The notes: generated from the letters alone by a model not told the origin. 32,000 bases of DNA from Candidatus Methanoperedens sp. (GCA_041494705.1 JBGQBI010000002.1:120001-152000), one strand, 5' to 3'. Shown: positions 868-31,705, counted from the first letter of the stretch. Translations and numbers: made by a program.

Positions 868-1657
868 AACGTTAATTGAAATAGGAATTGAAATCCGGGA
901 AATAATCGGCTCGTTCGTCAGGGATAACGCGGATTACGGGGATATGGTTGCCCGGCGCCCAAAGGATATCACGCGCAAAATGGACATGGCTGCTGAAAAT
1001 GCGCTTGATAATGCGCTTTTAACGCGCGGGCTTTCGGCAAGAATAATATCAGAGGAGCTTGGAGACCGCATCGTGGGTAAACGACCCGATTTCATGCTGG
1101 TTTTTGACCCCATTGACGGTTCTACCAATGCCACATGCGGCATCCCTTTTTTTTGCACATCGCTTGCTTATTCTGGAAAAACAGATATGGCTACGTTTGA
1201 CGATATCAGCATGGCTGTTATCTGCGATATCAGTGGAAATACATACTGCGCCGAAAGAGGAAAGGGCGCTTTTTTAAACGGCAAGCCGATTGGCGCAAAA
1301 TTGCGCGGCGCCATGCCAAAACCCGTAATATCAGTGTATTCATACGGCGTGCCCGAGGTCCCGAAGGGACTGATAGAACTTGAAAAATCAATAATTGTCA
1401 GGGCGCTTGGCAGTATTGCGCTTGATATGTGTTTTGTGGCTGACGGGACGCTTGACGGGATTATTGATACGCGGGGACTTGTAAGCGGTTATGATATAAT
1501 GGCATCTGCTCTGGTATTGAAAGAGGCGGGGGGGTTCCTGACGGGTCTTCATGGAAAAACCATATCCGGCGATGTCCAGGCTACGGGGTTATCTATAATC
1601 GGGACAAAGGATAAGGAACTTCACGATAAAATCGTAAGAACATTGGGACAAGGATGA
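857..1657 (+). CDS. Inositol-monophosphatase family phosphatase (IMPase/FBPase/CysQ-like)
   Basis: Carries SEELG, FDPIDGSTN and GYDIMASA motifs typical of the IMPase superfamily. I prefer the ATG at 857 (GGAG 6 nt upstream, MEIETLIEIG…) over the track start at 803. It overlaps the upstream stop by 11 nt. Confidence 0.8.
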   Translation: MEIETLIEIGIEIREIIGSFVRDNADYGDMVARRPKDITRKMDMAAENALDNALLTRGLSARIISEELGDRIVGKRPDFMLVFDPIDGSTNATCGIPFFCTSLAYSGKTDMATFDDISMAVICDISGNTYCAERGKGAFLNGKPIGAKLRGAMPKPVISVYSYGVPEVPKGLIELEKSIIVRALGSIALDMCFVADGTLDGIIDTRGLVSGYDIMASALVLKEAGGFLTGLHGKTISGDVQATGLSIIGTKDKELHDKIVRTLGQG

Positions 1658-1731
1658 CAGATAGGGAATTCCGGTACATCTATTTTAAAACTTAGCAAAA
1701 AAGGCTTCCGCAAGGGATAATTAATTTTAAT

Positions 1732-1763
1732 AAAAAAAAAGCTGGACAGCTTTGGGCTGTCCA
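1732..1763 (-). terminator. Hairpin plus T9 terminator downstream of the tetrahaem cytochrome gene
   Basis: There is a perfect 8-bp stem, tggacagc(1743-1750)/gcgtgtcca-type gctgtcca(1756-1763), with a 5-nt loop. A9 on the + strand (1732-1740) reads as T9 directly after the hairpin on the - strand. It lies between convergent genes. Confidence 0.6.
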
Positions 1764-1774
1764 ATATTTGTTAC

Positions 1775-2542
1775 TTATCCGCCTCCAGATGTGTAACTTG
1801 TGTTTGTTTGGTTAGTTACGCCTGTGAAGTTCACAACCCATCCGGCATTGCTTACATTCGCATTCATCGTGTATCCAGTTGCCCTGTTCCATGTGATGTT
1901 AACTACCGCATGGGTATGGCAGCCGATGCATGCCGTGTTGGTACCTTTCAGTTGGACAACAGTCTGGTTGCCGCTTGTTGCATACCACAGTGGTGTCTCC
2001 GAGTTCATGATGCCTGCGGCCTTCAAACTTGAGTAGTTGACATCGCCAACTGCCTTGTCTGATACCGATGCATAGTAGAAGGTCCTGTGCGCTTCCTGGT
2101 CTGACATTAATCTTAACGGTGAGTTGCCTGTACTTAAGCCGGTATTGTTATTCGTAAGATTTCCTGTGCCGTGGCATGCGAGACACTCAACTGTAATTGC
2201 CGCATGTGCCGAGAAATTTACCTGGCCGCTTATATTCTGAGTTTTACTTGTATAAGCTATCCACGCCTGTTTGCTCAGGTTAGCACCTGTTTTGTTAAAG
2301 TTCGTTGCATTTGGTGCAACGTGGCATCTTGCACAAGCATTTCCGTAGGAAGCTTCAAATTTTCCATGGTAAACGCTTTGAGTTGTTAACTCATCGTAGA
2401 TATCCTGGTGGCACTTCTGACATGGAATATCCGCTGTGTCATACCATGTATGCTGCCCTGCGAAAAGCGACATTGTGCTTGGCAAAGCAAAGAGACCTAC
2501 TGCGATTACTGCAAACGACAATAATATTATTTTGCTGTTCAT
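1775..2542 (-). CDS. Secreted or anchored tetrahaem c-type cytochrome, rich in N-glycosylation sequons
   Basis: Four CXXCH motifs (CQKCH, CARCH, CLACH, CIGCH). Hydrophobic N-terminus MNSKIILLSFAVIAVGLFALP. AGGAGGTGA lies upstream of the ATG at 2542. I hand-counted 14 N-X-S/T sequons in 255 aa. Confidence 0.9.
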   Translation of the reverse strand: MNSKIILLSFAVIAVGLFALPSTMSLFAGQHTWYDTADIPCQKCHQDIYDELTTQSVYHGKFEASYGNACARCHVAPNATNFNKTGANLSKQAWIAYTSKTQNISGQVNFSAHAAITVECLACHGTGNLTNNNTGLSTGNSPLRLMSDQEAHRTFYYASVSDKAVGDVNYSSLKAAGIMNSETPLWYATSGNQTVVQLKGTNTACIGCHTHAVVNITWNRATGYTMNANVSNAGWVVNFTGVTNQTNTSYTSGGG

Positions 2543-2669
2543 TTTTTTTCACCTCCTTTTCCTATCCATTATTTTTTTTTCTACCCAATTTGGGTTTAAT
2601 TTGGGTATAATTAGTGATATGCCAATCTTGGTATATATATCTTACGTTTTGGCGACCGGTATCGAAACC

Positions 2670-3092
2670 CTATTTAAGGTCGGTTTTGTAGGTCACGGAA
2701 GTAGTTGTCGTCCCCACTGGATCGACGAGTATGACACTAATCACTACAAATTCTCCCTTCTTTGGGTACTTCCAGAGCCCGACCGGTATCTTATAGGTGC
2801 CATTCCCAGTATATGGAACAGATGTCCAGTCGCTTATATCCTCCCCGTTTTGTATTATCTTGACTGTCACTCCGGGGAGGAACATTTGTGTCCCTTTAGG
2901 TTCGCTTATTTTTGATACAGGGACCAGATATGCGGTCATGTTATCTATCGTTGGCACATGGTTAATTTCATACTGTGTCAAGTTCAGTTGGACATTGATA
3001 TATTCTGCATCCTGCCGTGTGACATAGAAAATGCCTCCGGCGATTATTCCCACTATCACTACTAACAAGATGAGATTCCTGGCAAATGACAT
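2670..3092 (-). CDS. Small N-terminally membrane-anchored protein of unknown function
   Basis: ATG at 3092. One N-terminal hydrophobic helix (NLILLVVIVGIIAGGIFYV) is followed by about 110 aa that look beta-rich and carry NLT/NMT/NGT sequons. I recognise no family. Confidence 0.6.
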   Translation of the reverse strand: MSFARNLILLVVIVGIIAGGIFYVTRQDAEYINVQLNLTQYEINHVPTIDNMTAYLVPVSKISEPKGTQMFLPGVTVKIIQNGEDISDWTSVPYTGNGTYKIPVGLWKYPKKGEFVVISVILVDPVGTTTTSVTYKTDLK

Positions 3093-3148
3093 GGTGGGTT
3101 ATTTTTGCGCCAATCCTTATAAACTTTGCTTTACTAATATAAAGAAAA

Positions 3149-4168
3149 ATGAAGAAACTCTTACTTCTGGGCATAATCTTAACAGGACTGGCTGTTTACA
3201 GTTCTATCATGGCAATAAGCTATATTTCCGGGCCTGCGGTCTGCATAGACTGTCACGGGAGTAAATACAATGCAACAGCCAATGGCTCCATACTGCCATC
3301 GCATACGAACAGCAGTATAACCTGTATCGATTGCCATTCGGGAAAAGGCATACAGGCGCGAATTGATGCCCTGGATGTTGTTGCAGGCGCAAAAATACTC
3401 GATGAATCTAAACCTGTGATAAATCAGTTGTTCCAGGCAAATTTCTCATATACGAATAGCTTCAATGTTACAAGGTTTTCTTCACTGAAAGAAAACTGTG
3501 TAAAATGCCATCCCAGGAACGACCTGAAAGGCGGGATGCATGCGAATAATATCACCTGCAGCCTGTGCCATTTTGCCCACACCAAACAGAATATAAACTT
3601 TGAGGCTATCGGAATACAGACACATAAAAATGTAAAATGCACTGCATGTCATGGAACCGGTACTGAATTACAAATACCCACATGCACACAATGCCACGAG
3701 ACGCATGTAAAAGGTGCGGCATGGGGCAACGAGGTATGCCTCGGGTGCCACAAAGATGCCCACGTCCCTACCAGAAGCATAACTTTTACCGGAAATGAAC
3801 CGAAAGAGCTATGCCAGGGCTGTCATCCGGGTGAATACCAGAGCCTCACCACAAACGGTGGAAAGCATAACCTCTTACCTTCATGCGCAAGCTGTCATCC
3901 CAGCCACGGGGCCTTGATGGAATGCCTGGACTGTCATGGGGTGACCGAAGAATATTCAAGAAAGCATTATCCTCACCATCAAAACGCCTGCAACCTCTGC
4001 CATAGGTATGTAGCGGGTTGCGATACATGCCACAATCCCCACAACCCGTTCAACGGCCTTCCCAGGCCTGCTACGAACCAGCAGATACTTGAAATTGCAA
4101 AGCAGCGCGGACAAAATTTAAACACCTCAGTGACAAGACCTGCAAGGACGCCAAATCTTGACGAATAA
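3149..4168 (+). CDS. Membrane-anchored dodecahaem c-type cytochrome (paralogue A)
   Basis: Twelve CXXCH motifs in 339 aa. The N-terminal hydrophobic helix is followed immediately by CIDCH and ITCIDCHS, a NapC/NirT/NrfH-like arrangement. ATG at 3149. Confidence 0.9.
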   Translation: MKKLLLLGIILTGLAVYSSIMAISYISGPAVCIDCHGSKYNATANGSILPSHTNSSITCIDCHSGKGIQARIDALDVVAGAKILDESKPVINQLFQANFSYTNSFNVTRFSSLKENCVKCHPRNDLKGGMHANNITCSLCHFAHTKQNINFEAIGIQTHKNVKCTACHGTGTELQIPTCTQCHETHVKGAAWGNEVCLGCHKDAHVPTRSITFTGNEPKELCQGCHPGEYQSLTTNGGKHNLLPSCASCHPSHGALMECLDCHGVTEEYSRKHYPHHQNACNLCHRYVAGCDTCHNPHNPFNGLPRPATNQQILEIAKQRGQNLNTSVTRPARTPNLDE

Positions 4169-4200
4169 TATATTTAAATGAATAATTAGTATCATGGACT

Positions 4201-5211
4201 ATGAAAAAATTGCTGATTTCCGCACTCGTAATCATAGCAATGTTGGCATATATTTCATCAACAGCGCTCGATGACCTCGAAAAGCCAGTCTCATGCGCAG
4301 GCTGTCATAGTGCCGAGTATGGAAGTTACCTTTCGCCAATTAATAATTCAGAACTGCCAATCCACAAAAACAATAAAATAACATGCATAGACTGCCATTC
4401 AGCCCCGGGATTCCAATCAAGCCTGGAAACAGGGAAGTTCCTTATGAAGATAAATCTTGTAAATTACTCGCTTCCTGCAATCAATACGATATTCCAGGTA
4501 AATTCAACGCTCAATGAAACACTTGGTGCATCCGGGTTCGCGCTCCTCAAACCTGACTGCATTAAATGCCATGATGTAAAAAAAATCAAAACCCGCAATC
4601 CTGACCATACCGCGGTTCCGAATTGCAGGAACTGCCATACATTCCATAAAGAACCCTCAAAAAATATCGAAACAGGTTTCTGGAAACTCATGGGGGAGGG
4701 CGGGCACAGGAATTTAACATGCGGAGCATGTCACGGCACCGATGTAATGCAGTTGAACGAACTTCCCCAGTGCACAAAATGCCACACACCTCATCTGAAA
4801 GGCGCGCAGTGGGATAGAAGCGTGTGCCTCGGATGCCACAGCAATCCGCACATTCCTGTAAAAAATGCGGTATTTACCGGCACACCTCCAAAAGAGGCGT
4901 GCGGTGCCTGCCATAATAGTGTTTACCAGGTATTAACGGTTTATAACAGCAAACATAACCAGCTCCCCTCCTGTGCAAGCTGCCATCCAAAACACGGTGA
5001 GAAAATGGCATGCACGGACTGCCATACCAAAAACGCGCACAATAAATTTCATCCAGGCACTAAATGTGATAGCTGCCACGGTTTAGTAACAAAATGCACG
5101 GACTGCCATACGAACCCTCATGCGCCTTTAAAAGGTCTTCCTATAATATTAGGACAGCAACAATGGAAAGAATATGCAACCGCGGCAGGAAAGAAAAATC
5201 TGGCTGGTTAG
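4201..5211 (+). CDS. Membrane-anchored dodecahaem c-type cytochrome (paralogue B)
   Basis: Twelve CXXCH motifs in 336 aa, collinear with paralogue A, with shared ITCIDCHS, VCLGCH and LPSCASCHP strings. It starts 32 nt after the stop of A, so it is probably co-transcribed. Confidence 0.9.
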   Translation: MKKLLISALVIIAMLAYISSTALDDLEKPVSCAGCHSAEYGSYLSPINNSELPIHKNNKITCIDCHSAPGFQSSLETGKFLMKINLVNYSLPAINTIFQVNSTLNETLGASGFALLKPDCIKCHDVKKIKTRNPDHTAVPNCRNCHTFHKEPSKNIETGFWKLMGEGGHRNLTCGACHGTDVMQLNELPQCTKCHTPHLKGAQWDRSVCLGCHSNPHIPVKNAVFTGTPPKEACGACHNSVYQVLTVYNSKHNQLPSCASCHPKHGEKMACTDCHTKNAHNKFHPGTKCDSCHGLVTKCTDCHTNPHAPLKGLPIILGQQQWKEYATAAGKKNLAG

Positions 5212-5264
5212 TTACTGGTCTTGTTGAAATCAATCCAGAAAATAATAATTTCATGGAGGGAAAA

Positions 5265-5666
5265 ATGATCAAACTCAAAGCGCATATAGTTTCACGGGGA
5301 CGTGCTGAAGGCGATGCCCTTGTAACCTCGCAGCCCATCTCATTTCTGGGAAGCATTGATATGAAAACTGGTGTCGTGATAGAAAGCGGTCATGAACTTG
5401 CGGGGAAAAGCATAAAAGGAAAAGTCCTTGTTTTCCCTGGCGGCAAAGGTTCGACTGTGGGCTCTTATGCGATTTACCAGCTCAAGAAAAACGGCGCCGC
5501 ACCTTTAGCCATGATAAATGTCAAAGCCGAACCGATTGTTGCTGTGGGCGCCATCATTTCCGATATCCCGCTTGTGGATCGTGTTGAAAAGAACCCGGTC
5601 ACTGCGATAAGAACCGGGGATAAGGTTTTAGTGGATGCGATTGTAGGGAGCGTGGAGATCCTATGA
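5265..5666 (+). CDS. Aconitase-X swivel-domain (DUF126) protein; putative small subunit of phosphomevalonate dehydratase
   Basis: About 133 aa starting at MIKLKAHIVSRGRAEGDALV…, with FPGGKGSTVGSY typical of DUF126/AcnX-S. GGAGGG lies 4 nt upstream of the ATG at 5265. The track start at 5094 overlaps cytochrome B and is rejected. Confidence 0.6.
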   Translation: MIKLKAHIVSRGRAEGDALVTSQPISFLGSIDMKTGVVIESGHELAGKSIKGKVLVFPGGKGSTVGSYAIYQLKKNGAAPLAMINVKAEPIVAVGAIISDIPLVDRVEKNPVTAIRTGDKVLVDAIVGSVEIL

Positions 5667-5881: not shown

Positions 5882-5907
5882 TTTTTCATTTTTAAGTTGT
5901 TAGTAAA

Positions 5908-5979
5908 TGCGCCGGTCGGGAATCGAACCCGAGTTTAAGCGTTGGCAACGCCTAGTGATAGCCGCTACACTACCGGCGC
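5908..5979 (-). tRNA. tRNA-Gly (anticodon GCC)
   Basis: The reverse complement folds as a cloverleaf. The 7-bp acceptor stem is GCGCCGG/CCGGCGC with discriminator A. The D-loop contains AGCGG. The anticodon stem is AGGCG/CGCTT with loop TTGCCAA. The T-arm is TCGGG-TTCGATT-CCCGA. There is no encoded CCA and no intron. Confidence 0.95.
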
Positions 5980-6111
5980 AAACCGAAGTGTAAAACCCTT
6001 GCGAGCATTCTCTTAATACTTTAATCTATATTAATAGTTTTCACTAATCTTCAAACCATCCAAGAATAATAGATTTTGAATATACTTGAATATTCGAAAA
6101 TGAGCTTTCAA

Positions 6112-6322
6112 AAACCTTTAAGAAAGGTTTATCAAAAACCGTTGCGCCGCTTTACTTCGCAGACACGTATGCCCACAGGCATACGTGGATACCGCATAAA
6201 GCGAGGTGTCGCTTTTCAAACGACGGGTATGGTGCGCCATACCCGGACACGCCCTCCCGTTCGCAAAGCGTGTCGAAGACAGGCGTGACTCGGGCACTGC
6301 GTAAACCGAAGTATCGGCTTTC
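6112..6322. ncRNA. Candidate structured RNA or palindromic element (cluster of near-perfect hairpins)
   Basis: This is a GC-rich island in AT-rich intergenic DNA. Stems seen: 8 bp at 6112-6119/6123-6130, 10 bp at 6164-6173/6178-6187 (loop caca), 9 bp at 6224-6232/6237-6245 (loop tgcg), and 7 bp at 6246-6252/6268-6274. Strand and ends are unknown, and I recognise no known RNA family. Confidence 0.25.
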
Positions 6323-6364
6323 AATAACAATCTTTATCATATTTTAGCCTGAAATCAGCGTATA

Positions 6365-15074: not shown

Positions 15075-15971
15075 CTATATTATCGGCGAACCAGCAATCA
15101 GGCTCCCGACCACGTACCCCAGGATTACCCCTCCGTTAAGGAACGGCAGGCCAGCCTGGGGTTTACCTTTTATCACAAATCCCATCAGCACTGAAAATCC
15201 TACAAATGTGCCGATTATGGCGCCAATTGCGGGAATATTGACAGGACCGACAAGGGGAAGGGTGTAAGAGGCAGCTTTTACAAAAAAATTCGCAGATACA
15301 ACAAGTAATGTCGGCATAACCGCATCCCCGAGTCCCATAAAGAATGCTTCCCGTTCTTCCTTGTCGAATTTCTCGGTCAGGAAGGAATAATTCCAGTGTT
15401 TCGGGATGACCAACAATATCGGAAGCCTCAAATCCATCACGCCTTCTGCAAGCGTTATCATGTGTTTTGTCCTGTACACAGCGATATAATCATAAACAGC
15501 CAGAAGGACAAGTAACAGCAATGTTGGAATAATATCAAGCGAGATGCCAAAAATCGAAGCCGCACCCGCCCCGATGATTATGCCAATGCCATCGATCACA
15601 TACCATTCGGGAAATTTATGCAAAACGATTGTCAAACCTATTGAAATTATGAGGGTTAAAATGAAATTCGTTACCGGCGGTAAGAAATACGAGAAAACGG
15701 CGAAAAAAACATAATATAAGGTCGAAACTACTGTGAAAAGGATAAAAGCCTGTATCATCCATTTTTTATTCAGTTTTATCACAACCAATATGAAAGCGGT
15801 AAAAACGAGAATTATAGCCACCCAGTAAATCACATTGCTTGTAGCTTCCGGATTGGAAAAAGCTTTGATTTCGTTCACATCAAATGGTTTGCTAAGCGCT
15901 ACCGCGATTAGCTGGACGAGAAGCAGCACGAATGCCATGCCTATGATCGGTATGTATTTGTCGAGTTTCAA
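15075..15971 (-). CDS. Presenilin/signal-peptide-peptidase-type intramembrane aspartyl protease (archaeal PSH family)
   Basis: Polytopic membrane protein with the LAVYDYIAVY (YD) and FFMGLGDAVMP (GxGD) catalytic motifs and a PQAGLPFLNGG C-terminal motif. The start codon is TTG (+ strand caa at 15969-15971). The next ATG, at 15938, would remove the MKLDKYIPIIG segment. Confidence 0.85.
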   Translation of the reverse strand: MKLDKYIPIIGMAFVLLLVQLIAVALSKPFDVNEIKAFSNPEATSNVIYWVAIILVFTAFILVVIKLNKKWMIQAFILFTVVSTLYYVFFAVFSYFLPPVTNFILTLIISIGLTIVLHKFPEWYVIDGIGIIIGAGAASIFGISLDIIPTLLLLVLLAVYDYIAVYRTKHMITLAEGVMDLRLPILLVIPKHWNYSFLTEKFDKEEREAFFMGLGDAVMPTLLVVSANFFVKAASYTLPLVGPVNIPAIGAIIGTFVGFSVLMGFVIKGKPQAGLPFLNGGVILGYVVGSLIAGSPII

Positions 15972-18295: not shown

Positions 18296-18718
18296 TCAGC
18301 GTAAACGCCGCCGTTGAGATTGTGGTTGAGGTTGAATGGTGGTTTCAATAAGTTTTTGGGCTTTCATGTCCCATTTGTTATCTAAAATAGCTGATTTTAT
18401 AGTTCCATTTTCCATGGAAATCACAGCAGTATGATTTGTAATCACAGGATTTAAAATAGCATTTATTCTATCGCCATATCCGGAATTCCTGCTCTGGTAT
18501 TCAAAATAGAATTCCCATCGATATTTAGCGGATGTTTTCGTTTCATTTAATTTAAATGTTTCAGGGATTCCGTCAAATTTATAGGTTGCTTCATTTTTTA
18601 TAAAATTCGTAGCGATTAAAGCGTTTCCTTCTTTTGTGTAGTTAAGTGTAAAAAAAGCTATTGTTAATGCAAATAATAAAAATATTACGATTGCTGCTAT
18701 TAGCTTTTTTCTTTTCAT
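18296..18718 (-). CDS. N-terminally anchored or secreted hypothetical protein
   Basis: MKRKK is followed by a hydrophobic helix. The gene is low in G+C, has a Q/P/R-rich C-terminus, and I recognise no family. Confidence 0.55.
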   Translation of the reverse strand: MKRKKLIAAIVIFLLFALTIAFFTLNYTKEGNALIATNFIKNEATYKFDGIPETFKLNETKTSAKYRWEFYFEYQSRNSGYGDRINAILNPVITNHTAVISMENGTIKSAILDNKWDMKAQKLIETTIQPQPQSQRRRLR

Positions 18719-18760
18719 GCAGCTTCACATTAACTTATTCCCCACTCCCTCAGGAAAAGA

Positions 18761-19135
18761 TTATTTTGCCAATTCTTTCAGGCGTTTGATGCTTGCCATC
18801 ATGGCCTGCGATTCTTTTTTCTTCTGGTTTTCAAGATGCTCAATGATTGAATCGATATTTGTTTTGAGCTGGTATATCTTATACGGCCTTCCTTTTCCAG
18901 GTTTTTTCTCTTCCCTTTCTGCAATCCAGCCGAGTTCTTCCAGTTCACGCATGGCGATACTGACCTCCGGCTGTCTCAAATCCGAACCCATTTCAAGGTC
19001 CCTGGAAGTTACATCTTTAACGTTTTTTAAATATGTAAGCACTTTTGCTACGTTTCTCTTTAATCCCAATTCGATAAGCGTGTCCGCAAATTCCTCGTCG
19101 GCTTTGTCGAGCACATTGACTGAAAGACTTTTCAT
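18761..19135 (-). CDS. Small winged-helix transcriptional regulator (ArsR/TrmB-like)
   Basis: 124 aa with an HTH-like core VTSRDLEMGSDLRQPEVSIAMRELEELGWI, a wing KGRPYKIY, and a coiled C-terminus. Confidence 0.7.
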   Translation of the reverse strand: MKSLSVNVLDKADEEFADTLIELGLKRNVAKVLTYLKNVKDVTSRDLEMGSDLRQPEVSIAMRELEELGWIAEREEKKPGKGRPYKIYQLKTNIDSIIEHLENQKKKESQAMMASIKRLKELAK

Positions 19136-19325
19136 ATTATTTCACCCTTCTTCTTTAAATGTATTCATTAAATATAAATCTTACGTTTTAATATAAATTG
19201 AAAAAGAAAAGTCTTTATAATCAAAACTTTTAGAAAATTGATTCATTACATTTCACTACGAACGTGGAGACAATGACCATCAAAACGCATATATGATAGT
19301 TTTTCCCTATGAGACTGGGATTCTC

Positions 19326-24015: not shown

Positions 24016-25062
24016 ATGGTCGTCAGGAAAAATATATCTCTTGAACCGATTCATCTTAAAAAACTTGAATCCCTCATTGAAGAACACAAGGGTAATCTGA
24101 GCGCAGCTATCCGGGATGCAATCGATATAACCGAGGTATCGCTTCACCGATATGGGAAGGTCAGTGAAGCGCTATCAAAGATCGGAGCCGAGAAAAAAGA
24201 ATTGACCGGAAGAGAAGAATCGATTGAATCCGGTAGAAATGTACTGATAAGCACACCGATTTTCTTATGGATGCTTAAATGGACAAGAGGTATTTCTCTT
24301 GACCCTGAAATATTTGATGAACTGCTCGACCCTTTAAAAATCATCACAATATCAGAACTTGATAAGAAAATAAATGAGCTAAGCCGCGAATCCGGATGGA
24401 ACTGCAAAGTATCCCTGTTCTGTATGGATGATATTAATCCAACCACCGCCACCGTTTCAATAGCAGGAGATAACGAATTTTATCGGGAGTTCGTGGCGCA
24501 ACTTGTTGTAACGTTCCTGGCTTTAAACAAGGGTCTTGATATCGATCTGGTGCACAGGAGAGCCACTACAGTTCGTATTGATTTAAAGTCCCGGGAAAAA
24601 GGGGCAGCGCCGCTTGCTGCAATGAAACATTTCGGTTATTTAAAAGACACAATGAATGAGTTCAAATCAAAGGAAGATTTCTGGAGAGTTCTCATCGATA
24701 TATATAGTTCTGTGAATTATAATATGGTATCGCTTTATAGAGGCCATTACGAAGAGCTTCTTTCCAGCAATACGCCCATCGATGCAGGGATGTTCGAATC
24801 AATATCAAAAAAACACATAGAGAGTATCCCACATACTGATTTCTTAAAACTGTTAAAGAAAGTGGATGAAGCCCTGATGTTCGTAGACAAGATAGAGATA
24901 ATGGATAATGGCATTAATGTATATCACAATTATAAGGACGAGAAAGCTATTCAGAAAATCCGGGATTATTATTTATCGCTTCTAAAGGCTAACGGGCATG
25001 ATTATGAAGCGAAATATTCCACAAGCCTGATAGTTTTTAATCATGTATGCTGCAAGGGTTAG
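24016..25062 (+). CDS. Ribbon-helix-helix (CopG/MetJ-type) DNA-binding protein with a ~300-aa uncharacterised C-terminal region
   Basis: The N-terminus VRKNISLEPIHLKKLESLIEEHKGNLSAAIRDAIDI fits the strand-helix-helix pattern and parallels the NikR N-terminus. I do not recognise the rest. It ends …NHVCCKG. Confidence 0.65.
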   Translation: MVVRKNISLEPIHLKKLESLIEEHKGNLSAAIRDAIDITEVSLHRYGKVSEALSKIGAEKKELTGREESIESGRNVLISTPIFLWMLKWTRGISLDPEIFDELLDPLKIITISELDKKINELSRESGWNCKVSLFCMDDINPTTATVSIAGDNEFYREFVAQLVVTFLALNKGLDIDLVHRRATTVRIDLKSREKGAAPLAAMKHFGYLKDTMNEFKSKEDFWRVLIDIYSSVNYNMVSLYRGHYEELLSSNTPIDAGMFESISKKHIESIPHTDFLKLLKKVDEALMFVDKIEIMDNGINVYHNYKDEKAIQKIRDYYLSLLKANGHDYEAKYSTSLIVFNHVCCKG

Positions 25063-26072
25063 ATTACAACTACTTTTCTGGCAATGTCCCTGCATACGTT
25101 GATAAATTCGGAGGGGTCAACAGAGGGGAAAGTATCTATCAGGCACGTATCGCATTCTTTTACCACGCTGTTAAGTCTTCTGATATCCCCGTGATAAACC
25201 ATGATTTTTGCATTACCTTCTGCCGTTGCCATGAGGACGGGTTCATCCCCGATAAGTTTATCATAATCTTGTAATTCAAAGTCAATTTTTACCCCTAGGA
25301 TTTTTGAATTTACTTCTATATTCAGGATGGCATTCTTTAGCGCGGGAAGCCAGGCGTCGTTGAGTATGACTTTTTTTGCGCCCCCGAGAACACTCAAAAG
25401 GCCGAGCGTGCCCGGACCACAAAATCCATCGATTATAAACGTTCCATCCAATTCCCCTTTAATGTATAACTCATCCATTTTCCCGATTTTTGTGTTATTG
25501 AACTCGATGTGTATTCTTGACTGGTTCTTATAAATACACAGCTCGCCGAAAGATGAAGATATTACATCACATCTCATATCACATCCGGCAAGCAGCTCAT
25601 AGGTGTGGGGAATGCTGTCCGTATCCAGTATCCCGATACTTCTGGATTGCAGTCCTTTTCTTTTAATCACCCCTTTTATCTCCGGCACTTTTTCGACTAT
25701 TTCCCTGGCCGCATCTTCTGTAATCGAATCCATAATAAGGACAAGGCTTTTCCTGCCAAGCCTTGGGGGATATGGTATCCGGTACCCAAAAGCAATGAGC
25801 GGTGTCCCGACTTCCCGAAGCGCCGCATCTTGCGGGAATAATCCCGTTCTTTTCAGTATTGCCAGCACATTCCCGATAACGAAATCAAGGTGCCTCCTGC
25901 CGCATTTGCTGCAGCGCCCGGAGCCGGAATCCAGAATCTCCAAAAATTGAGCGTTTTTATCAAACCGGGGGTCAGGAGGACATGAACTGCACGCCATGTA
26001 CATCCCCAATATCTCATCAAGTACCTTTTCTGCCGGCTGTATGCAATCCCCGTTGCATGTGGGACATTTCAT
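25059..26072 (-). CDS. Zinc-ribbon protein fused to a class I SAM-dependent (Trm1/RsmD-like) methyltransferase domain
   Basis: N-terminal Cys pairs (CPTC…C, CSSC, CSKCGRRH). The C-terminus has IIDGFCGPGTLGLLSVLGGAKKVILND (motifs I/II) and CLIDTFPS (compare DPFG/DPPF, motif IV). Its 3' end overlaps the 3' end of the convergent gene by 4 nt. Confidence 0.65.
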   Translation of the reverse strand: MKCPTCNGDCIQPAEKVLDEILGMYMACSSCPPDPRFDKNAQFLEILDSGSGRCSKCGRRHLDFVIGNVLAILKRTGLFPQDAALREVGTPLIAFGYRIPYPPRLGRKSLVLIMDSITEDAAREIVEKVPEIKGVIKRKGLQSRSIGILDTDSIPHTYELLAGCDMRCDVISSSFGELCIYKNQSRIHIEFNNTKIGKMDELYIKGELDGTFIIDGFCGPGTLGLLSVLGGAKKVILNDAWLPALKNAILNIEVNSKILGVKIDFELQDYDKLIGDEPVLMATAEGNAKIMVYHGDIRRLNSVVKECDTCLIDTFPSVDPSEFINVCRDIARKVVVI

Positions 26073-26123
26073 AAGGTATATTTTTTGATTTAAGTTAAAT
26101 ATCTATCGGGTTAATCTTATCAT

Positions 26124-26498
26124 TTATCTTGAATAACTTGCAAGCTCTTCTGGCAATGATTTCTTATTTGCGCAAGTCTTTAATACAGTATACCAGTTAT
26201 GAACGAACAACACAAGAGATGCAAGCGCCAGAAATTCAAAAAATTCTAAATATACAATAATATTGGGAAGTGAGGTTCCTTCAAAAAATTCATGAACCAG
26301 TGGAAGAAAAGAAAACAAGAAAATATAAACACAGTTCTTTTTAAAAAAAGCTTCATCAACAATCGATTTTAACATCAATTCCTTTTTATCGATATCTTTC
26401 CATGAGAACCATATCTGGACAAATAAAAATATGAGTATCAAATACAAAACGAATATTGAAAATTCAAGGTATTTATAAAGATTATATTCATTTATCAT
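26124..26498 (-). CDS. Small hypothetical membrane protein
   Basis: 124 aa with about 3 hydrophobic helices. The gene is very AT-rich and I recognise no family. Confidence 0.5.
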   Translation of the reverse strand: MINEYNLYKYLEFSIFVLYLILIFLFVQIWFSWKDIDKKELMLKSIVDEAFFKKNCVYIFLFSFLPLVHEFFEGTSLPNIIVYLEFFEFLALASLVLFVHNWYTVLKTCANKKSLPEELASYSR

Positions 26499-30408: not shown

Positions 30409-31035
30409 TCATGCAAGTTTAGTCTGCTGGAATTTTGCCTTTAACCCGTCAAGGTCAATCAATTCGTTTATGATATCGATAAGGACATCGTTTCCTTTTT
30501 CCAGCACATTTTTACTATCTTCTTTGAGTTCAAAAGCCGGGTCTTCCGGAGGTATTTTGATGCGCGTCACAGAAGCCCTGTGTTCTTTAAGGCGAACATC
30601 CTTTGACTCCCTGATATTTTCTGTCTTTCGGCCTTCAATCCCGAGTAATTCAAGTTCGTATTTGAAACATGGGCGGTGGAAAAGTGAGGAAAGGATAAAA
30701 ACCGCGATATCCAGCCGGTCTGGCATATCGATATTCTTAAGATGGTCTTTTACGATGCCGTAAATATCACGTTTGGGGTTCGCTTTAAAGGTATAAACTA
30801 TTGAGGGAGGGATGTCAATCTCATCCAGATATCCCATGTCGTGAAGCGCGCGAAGGTAACCAGTGAGTATCAATCTGTGATGGTCGTGTCCGTTTTTTTT
30901 CAATTCCCTCGCTATGCTGCTTATGGACATTTGTTTATTCGCAAGCACGCCTGCGAGGATATTGTAAAACTCCGACATCAACTTAAGATTTGATAACAAA
31001 CCTGATAAATGTTTTGATTCGGATGGCAAGGACAT
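30409..31035 (-). CDS. Hypothetical protein with a probable winged-helix N-terminal region
   Basis: The stretch NILAGVLANKQMSISSIARELKKNGHDHHRLILTGYLRALHDMGYL looks like a wHTH. The start is uncertain: ATG at 31035 or 30978. The track start at 31185 would overlap hdrC and is rejected. Confidence 0.5.
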   Translation of the reverse strand: MSLPSESKHLSGLLSNLKLMSEFYNILAGVLANKQMSISSIARELKKNGHDHHRLILTGYLRALHDMGYLDEIDIPPSIVYTFKANPKRDIYGIVKDHLKNIDMPDRLDIAVFILSSLFHRPCFKYELELLGIEGRKTENIRESKDVRLKEHRASVTRIKIPPEDPAFELKEDSKNVLEKGNDVLIDIINELIDLDGLKAKFQQTKLA

Positions 31036-31090
31036 TGCAATACTATTATATATAGCATTAACCCTACATCTACTTCCTCCCGAGCGAGAT

Positions 31091-31705
31091 ATGAACAAAG
31101 AAATAATCCTCATTGAATCCAGGGACGCTGCTTTTAGAGACCTCATTTTAAAAACACCGGTGGGCAAGAAGCTCCCCACATGCATGCAGTGCGGTATATG
31201 TGCGGGCTCATGTCCGGTCAGCCATGAAATGGATTATAACCCGCGCCAGCTTGTGCGCATGGTTCAGCTTGGCCTCAAAAAGGAAGTGCTCAACAGCAAC
31301 ACTATATGGATATGCACCACATGCTTTTCATGCTCTGTGCGCTGCCCGAGGGGGATACGCCCCACTGAACTCATGGAGACGTTAAAACCCATAGCAATAG
31401 CAGAAGGCGTAGAGAACAAAAACGAAAGATTTGACGGCGTTTTCTCAGATGTGGTCAGGAAAAACGGCAGGGCTTCTGAATTCCTTCTAATCTCCAGATA
31501 CAGCCTGAAAGAGCCTGAAATGATAAAACAGGCTCCATTTGGTCTTTCTCTTTTCTCAAAAGGAAAATTGCCCCTGGCCATTGATAAAATGGAAAATACG
31601 CGTGAACTTGATAGTATTTTTAGTCTCGGGGAAAAAGCGGAAAAGAAAGAAAACAAGGAAACAGAGACGGAAATAGAAAAAGAAGAGCCGGAGACCGATA
31701 AATGA
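31091..31705 (+). CDS. hdrC: Heterodisulfide reductase subunit C
   Basis: Two [4Fe-4S] ferredoxin-type motifs, CMQCGICAGSCP and CTTCFSCSVRCP. ATGA overlap with hdrB. It has a Glu/Lys-rich C-terminal tail. Confidence 0.9.
   Translation: MNKEIILIESRDAAFRDLILKTPVGKKLPTCMQCGICAGSCPVSHEMDYNPRQLVRMVQLGLKKEVLNSNTIWICTTCFSCSVRCPRGIRPTELMETLKPIAIAEGVENKNERFDGVFSDVVRKNGRASEFLLISRYSLKEPEMIKQAPFGLSLFSKGKLPLAIDKMENTRELDSIFSLGEKAEKKENKETETEIEKEEPETDK

Follow-up and report, generated by a model that had tools for sequence, protein, structure and literature searches.

A putative extracellular cytochrome nanowire cassette at a conserved chromosomal site of Candidatus Methanoperedens

A four-gene block built around an AvECN-family cytochrome

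A 32,000-nucleotide stretch of a Candidatus Methanoperedens sp. genome (GCA_041494705.1 JBGQBI010000002.1:120001-152000; hereafter the window, to which all coordinates refer) contains, at positions 1775 to 5211, a block of four intact genes, here named A, B, C, and D, with 4, 0, 12, and 12 CXXCH haem motifs, respectively. We lean toward reading the block as a satellite cassette of Candidatus Methanoperedens for an extracellular cytochrome nanowire (ECN). The original prediction, made from the DNA alone, had proposed a membrane-to-outside electron transfer module, and this is supported by the membership of A in the family of the archaeal nanowire protein AvECN and by the linkage of the genes. 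What has been shown is that A belongs to this family, that A, B, and D are conserved and linked, that the genes are under purifying selection, and that homologues elsewhere are highly expressed. When all stop-free segments of at least 100 amino acids were scanned, 28 of the 29 CXXCH motifs in the window fell in A, C, and D, a clustering far beyond chance.

Gene A (positions 1775 to 2542, minus strand) encodes a tetrahaem c-type cytochrome of 255 amino acids with haem motifs at C41, C70, C120, and C205. The searches against generic Pfam and NCBIfam models that had been proposed as a check returned only cytochrome c7, c3, and c554 repeats, and it was the PDB search that was specific. The sole phmmer match in the PDB was chain A of 8E5G (E = 4.5e-14, residues 3 to 246), which is AvECN (UniProt F2KMU8), the subunit with four haems from which the extracellular cytochrome nanowire of Archaeoglobus veneficus is built (PMC12954529). 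A profile of 26 A-family sequences matched 8E5G with 172 bits (E = 8.7e-50) over positions 3 to 209 of 211, and the next-best PDB match of this profile was NrfA (E = 7.6e-8). A and 8E5G are 28% identical in pairwise alignment, in which the four CXXCH motifs are aligned, as are H31, H59, H113, and H152. The four motifs are invariant among the 26 family members. Two of the candidate distal histidines are also invariant, namely, H31 within SLF-x-GQH and H152, and H113 is present in most members but under the 90% threshold. AvECN resembles A further in its similar size, in its N-terminal export signal, and in the shared N-terminal segment LPST-x-SLF-x-GQH-x-WY; A differs in having extra sequon-rich loops. 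We regard A as almost certainly a member of the AvECN family. AvECN has been solved as a filament, whereas polymerization of the Methanoperedens members is a prediction.

The hydrophobic segment of A (residues 5 to 23, Kyte-Doolittle score of 2.31) is a predicted Sec signal, and it is followed by a conserved small-x-small site, T-x-S (S25), directly before LF-x-GQH. The -3/-1 rule and the conservation of this site in the family suggest cleavage by signal peptidase after S25, so that H31 would end up on a short arm at the N terminus. A contains 14 N-x-S/T sequons, compared to 4.9 ± 1.9 in composition-matched shuffles, none of which (0 of 2,000) reached 14. The earlier proposal of a glycosylated tetrahaem protein as the outward-facing component is supported, with A belonging to the AvECN family.

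The A family comprised 134 homologues in a set of 5.8 billion proteins, including Ferp_0668 of Ferroglobus placidus and a Geoglobus acetivorans protein, and 221 loci in GTDB species representatives, which belong to Methanoperedens, the anaerobic methanotrophic archaea (ANME) groups ANME-1 and ANME-2, Syntrophoarchaeum, Archaeoglobaceae, and a metagenome-assembled genome of Methanocellales. The named close relatives of the block proteins are all annotated as Candidatus Methanoperedens. Identical copies of the proteins are present on a 2.07-Mb JGI metagenome contig and in the metagenome-assembled genome GCA_041489935.1, and the exact locus is carried by the samples SRR29605729, SRR29604878, and JGI 3300053059. 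A four-haem homologue of Ferp_0668, MPEBLZ_04274, was the most highly expressed cytochrome c of M. nitroreducens MPEBLZ in a nitrate-fed culture (RPKM, 9148) (PMC4683180). A group of small multihaem cytochromes that is widespread in ANME, Syntrophoarchaeum, and some Archaeoglobales is likewise among the highest transcribed genes (Chadwick et al., PMC9012536). The taxonomic spread of the A family fits these published expression groups, although their identity as the same protein group is unconfirmed.

Gene B and its association with ECN-like genes

Gene B (positions 2670 to 3092, minus strand) encodes a 140-amino-acid protein with no matches in Pfam or NCBIfam. A word-indexed search found 17 close relatives, and an exhaustive profile search yielded 54 cluster representatives at E ≤ 1e-3 among 1.84 billion, some of which are tandem domain duplications. 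By sequence, B defines a rare protein family adjoining ECN-like cytochrome genes. Its AlphaFold model (mean predicted local distance difference test [pLDDT] score of 78.7) consists of an N-terminal transmembrane helix at residues 2 to 24 and a seven-strand beta-sandwich ectodomain; the one further hydrophobic stretch in the protein corresponds to a predicted beta-strand. Two sequons, at N37 and N51, are invariant in the family and a third, at N97, is nearly so, and because all three are conserved, the ectodomain is argued to be extracellular and glycosylated.

The association of B with ECN-like genes was found from both directions. A search with the B profile placed B in 33 of 78 ECN-like loci from GTDB genomes, including 20 of the 24 Methanoperedens loci. 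The median gap between B and the nearest A-family gene was 89 nucleotides, with gaps of at most 300 nucleotides in 28 of the 33 loci, and the strand was usually shared. In an unbiased clustering of the neighbours within 2.5 kb of the 78 loci, B was the largest non-haem family. Conversely, two tandem-B proteins that had been found independently of A each cluster with an A-family tetrahaem gene (hidden Markov model E = 7e-45 and 1e-25). An S26 signal peptidase is encoded in both clusters as well, along with a membrane protein that has a homologue in the Ferroglobus cluster.

B also occurs beside other cytochromes. At six loci (L043, L058, L062, L064, L079, and L083), it is preceded by a gene for a distinct five-haem cytochrome family of 216 to 243 amino acids with the motif WHP-x-x-x-C-x-x-CH, which lies outside the A family. 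This gene directly adjoins B or overlaps it by as many as 14 nucleotides, which suggests that B and a small cytochrome are translationally coupled. A metagenomic protein (P0213, locus L087) carries a BNR/sortilin-type beta-propeller with a weakly B-like domain (E = 5e-4) fused at the C terminus, and a BNR beta-propeller protein is present in the ECN clusters of Ferroglobus and Geoglobus (L084, 14919 to 16043; L085, 13826 to 14956). Together with the propellers of bacterial OmcE clusters, these may represent a recurring accessory theme.

Dodecahaem cytochromes C and D

Genes C (positions 3149 to 4168, plus strand; 339 amino acids) and D (positions 4201 to 5211, plus strand; 336 amino acids) encode paralogous dodecahaem cytochromes that share 39% identity from end to end. 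C has 12 CXXCH motifs and 12 further histidines and occurs only in the sub-lineage containing this genome. Other Methanoperedens cassettes have a single copy of the D type, which is 53 to 59% identical to D and 36 to 43% identical to C. The D family has 25 relatives among 5.8 billion proteins, all of them in Methanoperedens, and in every locus examined, D-type dodecahaems were found exclusively beside A and B. The family alignment of C and D shows 12 CXXCH motifs, at least 10 further conserved histidines, and a conserved C-terminal segment, NPH-x-P-x-x-GLP ... QQ-x-x-E-(I/Y)-A. The haem density is approximately 1 per 28 residues.

When C and D were searched against the Pfam and NCBI families, as had been proposed, the generic repeat model Cytochrome_C7 passed (48.7 and 65.6 bits, respectively; cut-off, 24.8), while every specific family fell below its cut-off. 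An identity as MtrA/DmsE decahaems was rejected with 36.0 and 28.1 bits against TIGR03508 (cut-off, 192.2) and the absence of a gene for a beta-barrel porin partner, and an NrfB identity was rejected with 28 to 31 bits against cut-offs of 167 to 184. A c7-type triheme polymer of the GSU1996 kind was also rejected (TIGR04257; 23.7 bits versus 40 for D and no match for C). The D-family profile matched only generic multihaem conduits in the PDB, namely, UndA (3.5e-10), HmcA (2.6e-9), and MtrA (6R2Q_A; E = 1.4e-6).

The original prediction had the dodecahaems drawing electrons from the membrane quinone pool. This was unsupported, as NrfH scored 25.6 to 28.3 bits versus a cut-off of 134.2, and NapC/NirT was matched by D only, with 16.1 bits versus 24.1. 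No cytochrome b or NrfD subunit gene adjoins C and D. In this family of archaea, menaquinol oxidation is assigned to separate menaquinone:cytochrome c oxidoreductases encoded in five other gene cluster types (PMC7327174). The haem density, the N-terminal helix, and the exclusive linkage to A and B point to a putative role of C and D in bridging the pseudoperiplasm.

Cassette replacement at a fixed site

Co-localization in related genomes had been named as a check on the module, and the four genes were indeed found together in related genomes, at a syntenic site. The cassette lies between an IMPase-family gene and the gene for the swivel subunit of AcnX in at least eight genomes, and both flanking genes are as originally assigned. 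The description of the block as inserted between them was misleading, because the IMPase/AcnX site is conserved across the genus, there is no compositional sign of recent insertion, and it is the content of the cassette that is replaced between species. A recent mobile-element insertion was rejected because the GC content equals that of the window, no direct repeats flank the cassette (the only repeats found encode CXXCH), and the A and B families had no match in IMG/VR viral contigs.

Replacement is seen most clearly at three loci (L012-L014) that occupy the same site. Their flanking proteins are 78 to 99% identical to those of the window; in contrast, the A proteins are 38 to 39% identical, the B proteins are 27 to 44% identical, and the single dodecahaem is 57 to 59% identical. 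The gene order there is B'-A'-D' instead of A-B-C-D, and A has 214 amino acids. At the DNA level, the flanks are approximately 77 to 92% identical, while within the cassette (window positions 1647 to 4453) similarity is confined to the 5' end of A and its leader; most of D aligns too. Positions 2450 to 2650, comprising the 5' end of A and part of the leader, are kept at 78 to 84% DNA identity where the rest of A has been replaced. In L013, an identity of 92% extends up to position 1646 and resumes from 6319; inside the cassette, only positions 2450 to 2612 align, followed from 4454 by most of D and the AcnX region.

Where the cassette type is orthologous, the ratios of nonsynonymous to synonymous substitution rates were 0.34 to 0.57 for A, 0.32 to 0.54 for B, and 0.17 to 0.28 for C and D, compared to 0 to 0.13 for the flanking genes. 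These values show purifying selection, indicating that all four genes are functional. A and B, presumably the most exposed of the proteins, evolve fastest. The sister genome SR-VP_0-2cm_41_45 (L007) has an almost exact deletion of D (window positions 4253 to 5222) and has kept C, which suggests partial redundancy of the two dodecahaems.

The wholesale replacement of mature A, B, and the dodecahaem complement between genomes that are approximately 80 to 90% identical might stem from diversifying selection acting on a conductive appendage that is exposed, with partner or mineral specificity, or escape from viruses for which the filament is a receptor, as possible drivers. Combined with the idea that archaeal cytochrome nanowires have in B their first recognizable dedicated factor for anchoring or assembly, acting with a lineage-specific dodecahaem feeder, this is a speculative proposal that we consider distinctly unlikely to hold in full.

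Other neighbours recur around ECN genes. Across the 78 loci, an S26 peptidase was found at 19, a membrane protein of about 300 amino acids at 18, and a CARDB protein at 7, and they also occur in Ferroglobus and Geoglobus; none of the three is encoded in this window. The S26 signal peptidase and a Ferp_258-like membrane protein (approximately 260 to 360 amino acids, with no Pfam match) lie beside ECN-like genes from Archaeoglobales to ANME and Methanoperedens (L058, L083, L084, L085, L086, L088, and 13 further loci) and are probably the "peptidase" and "8x TMH" genes of Chadwick et al. (2022).

Proposed electron path and alternative explanations

We propose that A would polymerize outside the membrane, as AvECN does, with histidines of one subunit completing the bis-histidine haem ligation in the next to give a continuous, insulated haem chain leading away from the cell. 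A is somewhat more likely than not to form filaments in vivo. C and D would be paralogous 12-haem wires, held at the membrane or released via the N-terminal helix and spanning the pseudoperiplasm, which would take electrons from menaquinol:cytochrome c oxidoreductases encoded elsewhere and hand them to the base of the filament. Whether C and D feed A is a nearly even question on which we are slightly doubtful. B, a single-pass protein with a glycosylated beta-sandwich ectodomain, might anchor the filament to the membrane or aid its assembly; this is the weakest step, and we consider such a role somewhat unlikely. The S26 peptidase and the Ferp_258-like protein are absent at this locus and so would have to act from elsewhere in the genome.

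Several points weigh against this scheme. No filament has been visualized so far in Methanoperedenaceae (PMC13046784), and membership in the AvECN family is no proof of polymerization, given that these genomes carry several ECN-like paralogues. The expression support comes from homologues and none of it from this particular locus, and the high expression of homologues under nitrate conditions (PMC4683180) is unexpected for a nanowire dedicated to metals or electrodes. The AlphaFold model of D (from a 21-sequence alignment) is unusable, with a mean pLDDT of 48.6, so the geometry of C and D as linear wires is an assumption. The fold of B has no significant PDB neighbour (best E = 0.05). B has no cysteine and no conserved histidine, cysteine, or methionine for haem ligation, and it is therefore not a haem ligand donor. 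B is also absent from all seven Archaeoglobaceae loci (0/7) and from Ferroglobus and Geoglobus, which indicates that it is not universally required for ECN filaments.

The absence of observed filaments in Methanoperedenaceae (PMC13046784) would also suit an abundant A that forms no filaments and exists, in the pseudoperiplasm or at the S-layer, as a monomer or small oligomer exchanging electrons with C and D, so that the cassette is a short-range relay. In line with such a carrier, each genome has many paralogues, which differ in length and have three to six haem motifs, and small multihaem cytochromes have been proposed as membrane-to-S-layer intermediates (Chadwick et al., PMC9012536). However, A is collinear over its full length with a protein solved as a filament, including the LF-x-GQH arm and the four distal histidines. 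Axial histidine ligands in the AvECN filament are supplied by adjacent subunits (bioRxiv 2023.06.12.544705; PMC11936953); because AvECN needs these neighbouring ligands, a monomeric A would leave haems unsatisfied. We consider the non-filamentous carrier unlikely.

The remaining two explanations connect the block to nitrate-type respiration. It is improbable that, rather than extracellular electron transfer, the module serves the respiration of a soluble acceptor, such as by supplying electrons to Nar or Nrf in nitrate-dependent methane oxidation. The top transcript rank of MPEBLZ_04274 among cytochromes c of the nitrate-fed culture (PMC4683180) and the high expression of extracellular multihaem cytochromes under nitrate (PMC10542353) speak for it. 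However, the authors of the latter study themselves proposed direct interspecies electron transfer to account for that expression (PMC10542353), there is no reductase gene in or near the cassette (the window and 10 kb on either side), and the A family is also abundant in ANME-1, ANME-2, Syntrophoarchaeum, and Fe(III)-reducing Archaeoglobales, none of which respire nitrate. A second possibility is a membrane-anchored quinol dehydrogenase of the NapC/NirT/NrfH type, in the form of A or of the four-haem N-terminal portion of C and D. It is suggested by the Joint Genome Institute label of A ("nitrate/TMAO reductase-like tetraheme cytochrome c subunit"), by weak matches of A, C, and D to the NrfH model TIGR03153 (E of approximately 1e-6, covering most of its 138 positions) and of A and D to PF03264 (E = 6e-4 and 9e-3), by the position of the first CXXCH 8 to 10 residues past the hydrophobic helix, and by the invariant Y17 and S19 in that helix. 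All of these scores are under the family cut-offs, with 25.6 to 28.6 bits versus 134.2 for TIGR03153 and 20.0 (A) and 16.1 (D) versus 24.1 for PF03264, whereas A scores 172 bits to AvECN. The D-family profile reaches NrfH in the PDB at only E = 0.049, via its C-terminal part. Dedicated menaquinone:cytochrome c oxidoreductases are encoded elsewhere in these genomes (PMC7327174), and no periplasmic reductase partner gene was found in the window or within 10 kb of it. A quinol dehydrogenase is thus highly improbable.

Comparison with other cytochrome systems

The ECN loci of Archaeoglobales differ from this cassette in having a second ECN-like gene, giant multihaem cytochromes, an S26 peptidase, a CARDB protein, and a BNR propeller and in lacking B and a dodecahaem. 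The OmcE clusters of Geobacter and Desulfuromonas are similar to the cassette in combining a filament cytochrome with two multihaem cytochromes and non-haem envelope accessories (bioRxiv 2025.10.22.684050). The OmcE filament is tetrahaem and insulated and uses inter-subunit histidine ligation, and these are the features proposed for A. However, neither OmcE nor OmcS has meaningful sequence kinship to A (A-family profile E = 2e-4 for OmcE 7TFS and 0.12 for OmcS), and the OmcE accessories are beta-propeller lipoproteins and an outer membrane beta-barrel, whereas the accessory of the cassette is the single-pass beta-sandwich B in a host without an outer membrane.

The haem density of C and D is comparable to that of the MtrA/DmsE decahaems, UndA, HmcA, and the GSU1996 dodecahaem, and C and D weakly match c7/c3 repeats. 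Unlike these linear multihaem conduits, they score far under the family cut-offs, have no porin partner, and are restricted to Methanoperedens. The other candidate cytochrome nanowire system of Methanoperedens and Borgs is OmcZ/OzpA (Ouboter 2024; Schoelmerich 2024), which has an unrelated octahaem subunit and a subtilisin-like maturation protease at a different locus, with none of its components in the window. OmcZ structures were absent from the PDB matches of A, C, or their profiles, and the block has no protease gene. The extracellular electron transfer clusters of Ouboter 2024, which comprise an NrfD-type complex and OmcZ, were set aside as different loci.

Gene organization, regulatory signals, and surroundings

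The layout was largely as first described. The four genes are divergent, with A and B on the minus strand and C and D on the plus strand, separated by 32 nucleotides, and a recount confirmed 28 CXXCH motifs in the three cytochromes (930 amino acids). All four proteins have an N-terminal hydrophobic helix, each represented by a single strong 19-residue segment (Kyte-Doolittle scores of 2.2 to 2.7). The AT-rich character of the intergenic spacers was also borne out, with a GC content of 0.19 to 0.34 compared to 0.45 in the block and in the whole window.

Downstream of A, a terminator-like element at positions 1733 to 1764 on the minus strand consists of a 9-bp G+C-rich hairpin (1764 to 1742) followed by T9 (1741 to 1733); it begins 11 nucleotides past the stop codon, and the hairpin and T tract noted earlier are thereby confirmed as lying 3' of A. 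In archaea, an oligo-T tract by itself may suffice for termination. The region upstream of A (positions 2543 to 2669, minus strand; GC content, 0.33) contains the ribosome-binding site GGAGGTGA 8 nucleotides before the ATG and AT-rich TATA-like sequences, which form a putative promoter. Another putative promoter region is the 56-nucleotide divergent intergenic region between B and C (positions 3093 to 3148; GC content, 0.30), with TTATAAA approximately 29 nucleotides ahead of the start codon (ATG) of C and TTTATAT on the opposite strand. The spacer between C and D (positions 4169 to 4200, plus strand; 32 nucleotides; GC content, 0.19) has TATATTTAAAT approximately 26 nucleotides ahead of the start codon (ATG) of D and lacks a Shine-Dalgarno sequence, and it may be an internal promoter yielding a leaderless transcript. 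A scan for sigma-70 promoters performed no better on the DNA than on shuffles, and the sigma-70 model is irrelevant to an archaeon.

In public gene calls, the gene for the AcnX swivel subunit begins at position 5163, so that it overlaps the 3' end of D by 49 nucleotides (window positions 5094 to 5666). The ATG at 5265, which is preceded by GGAGGG, is a more plausible start. There is no terminator-like element between D and the AcnX gene, and read-through from D is therefore possible.

The rest of the window is housekeeping in nature (PolD, HisD, Amt, riboflavin genes, NikR-CbiMQO, and one tRNA-Gly), which indicates that the window is chromosomal and not part of a Borg or plasmid. The tRNA-Gly(GCC) gene lies at positions 5907 to 5980 on the minus strand, 0.7 kb downstream of the cassette. 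Between it and hisD, approximately 270 bp (6050 to 6323) is unaligned in every syntenic genome while both sides align, making it a small variable spacer. A presenilin-type signal-peptide peptidase (PF06550, E = 4e-96) is encoded 10 kb from the cassette at positions 15075 to 15971 on the minus strand; it is probably unrelated housekeeping and would act on signal-peptide remnants of exported cytochromes. Four open reading frames without a Pfam match (348, 337, 124, and 258 amino acids) lie at positions 24016 to 26498 and 30409 to 31185, and a pair at positions 18296 to 19196 likewise has no Pfam match.

Novelty and significance

The block had been put forward as an undescribed module, which is only partly the case. 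AvECN homologues in Methanoperedenaceae are noted in a 2026 review (PMC13046784), and a Lake Cadagno study cites the ECN of strain BLZ2, WP_097300794.1 (PMC12246660); expression of a Ferp_0668-like cytochrome has been reported as well (PMC4683180). The central gene A is therefore not new. However, the cassette with its B and dodecahaem families was not found described, and in the accessible literature neither the architecture of the cassette nor the B family nor the polymorphism at this site appears to have been described.

How Methanoperedens and other methane-oxidizing archaea pass electrons to minerals, electrodes, or partner bacteria has yet to be settled, and "cytochrome nanowire versus conductive archaellum" is listed as an open question in the 2026 review (PMC13046784). 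The secretion, anchoring, and electron feeding of any cytochrome nanowire are still a question as well (bioRxiv 2025.10.22.684050). The locus described here offers a compact, conserved, and testable three-component set, consisting of a candidate filament subunit, a dedicated 12-haem partner, and a small membrane protein without known relatives. That the cassette is polymorphic while its site is fixed provides a natural experiment on which of these parts must covary, and the cassette would thus give a testable handle on nanowire assembly.

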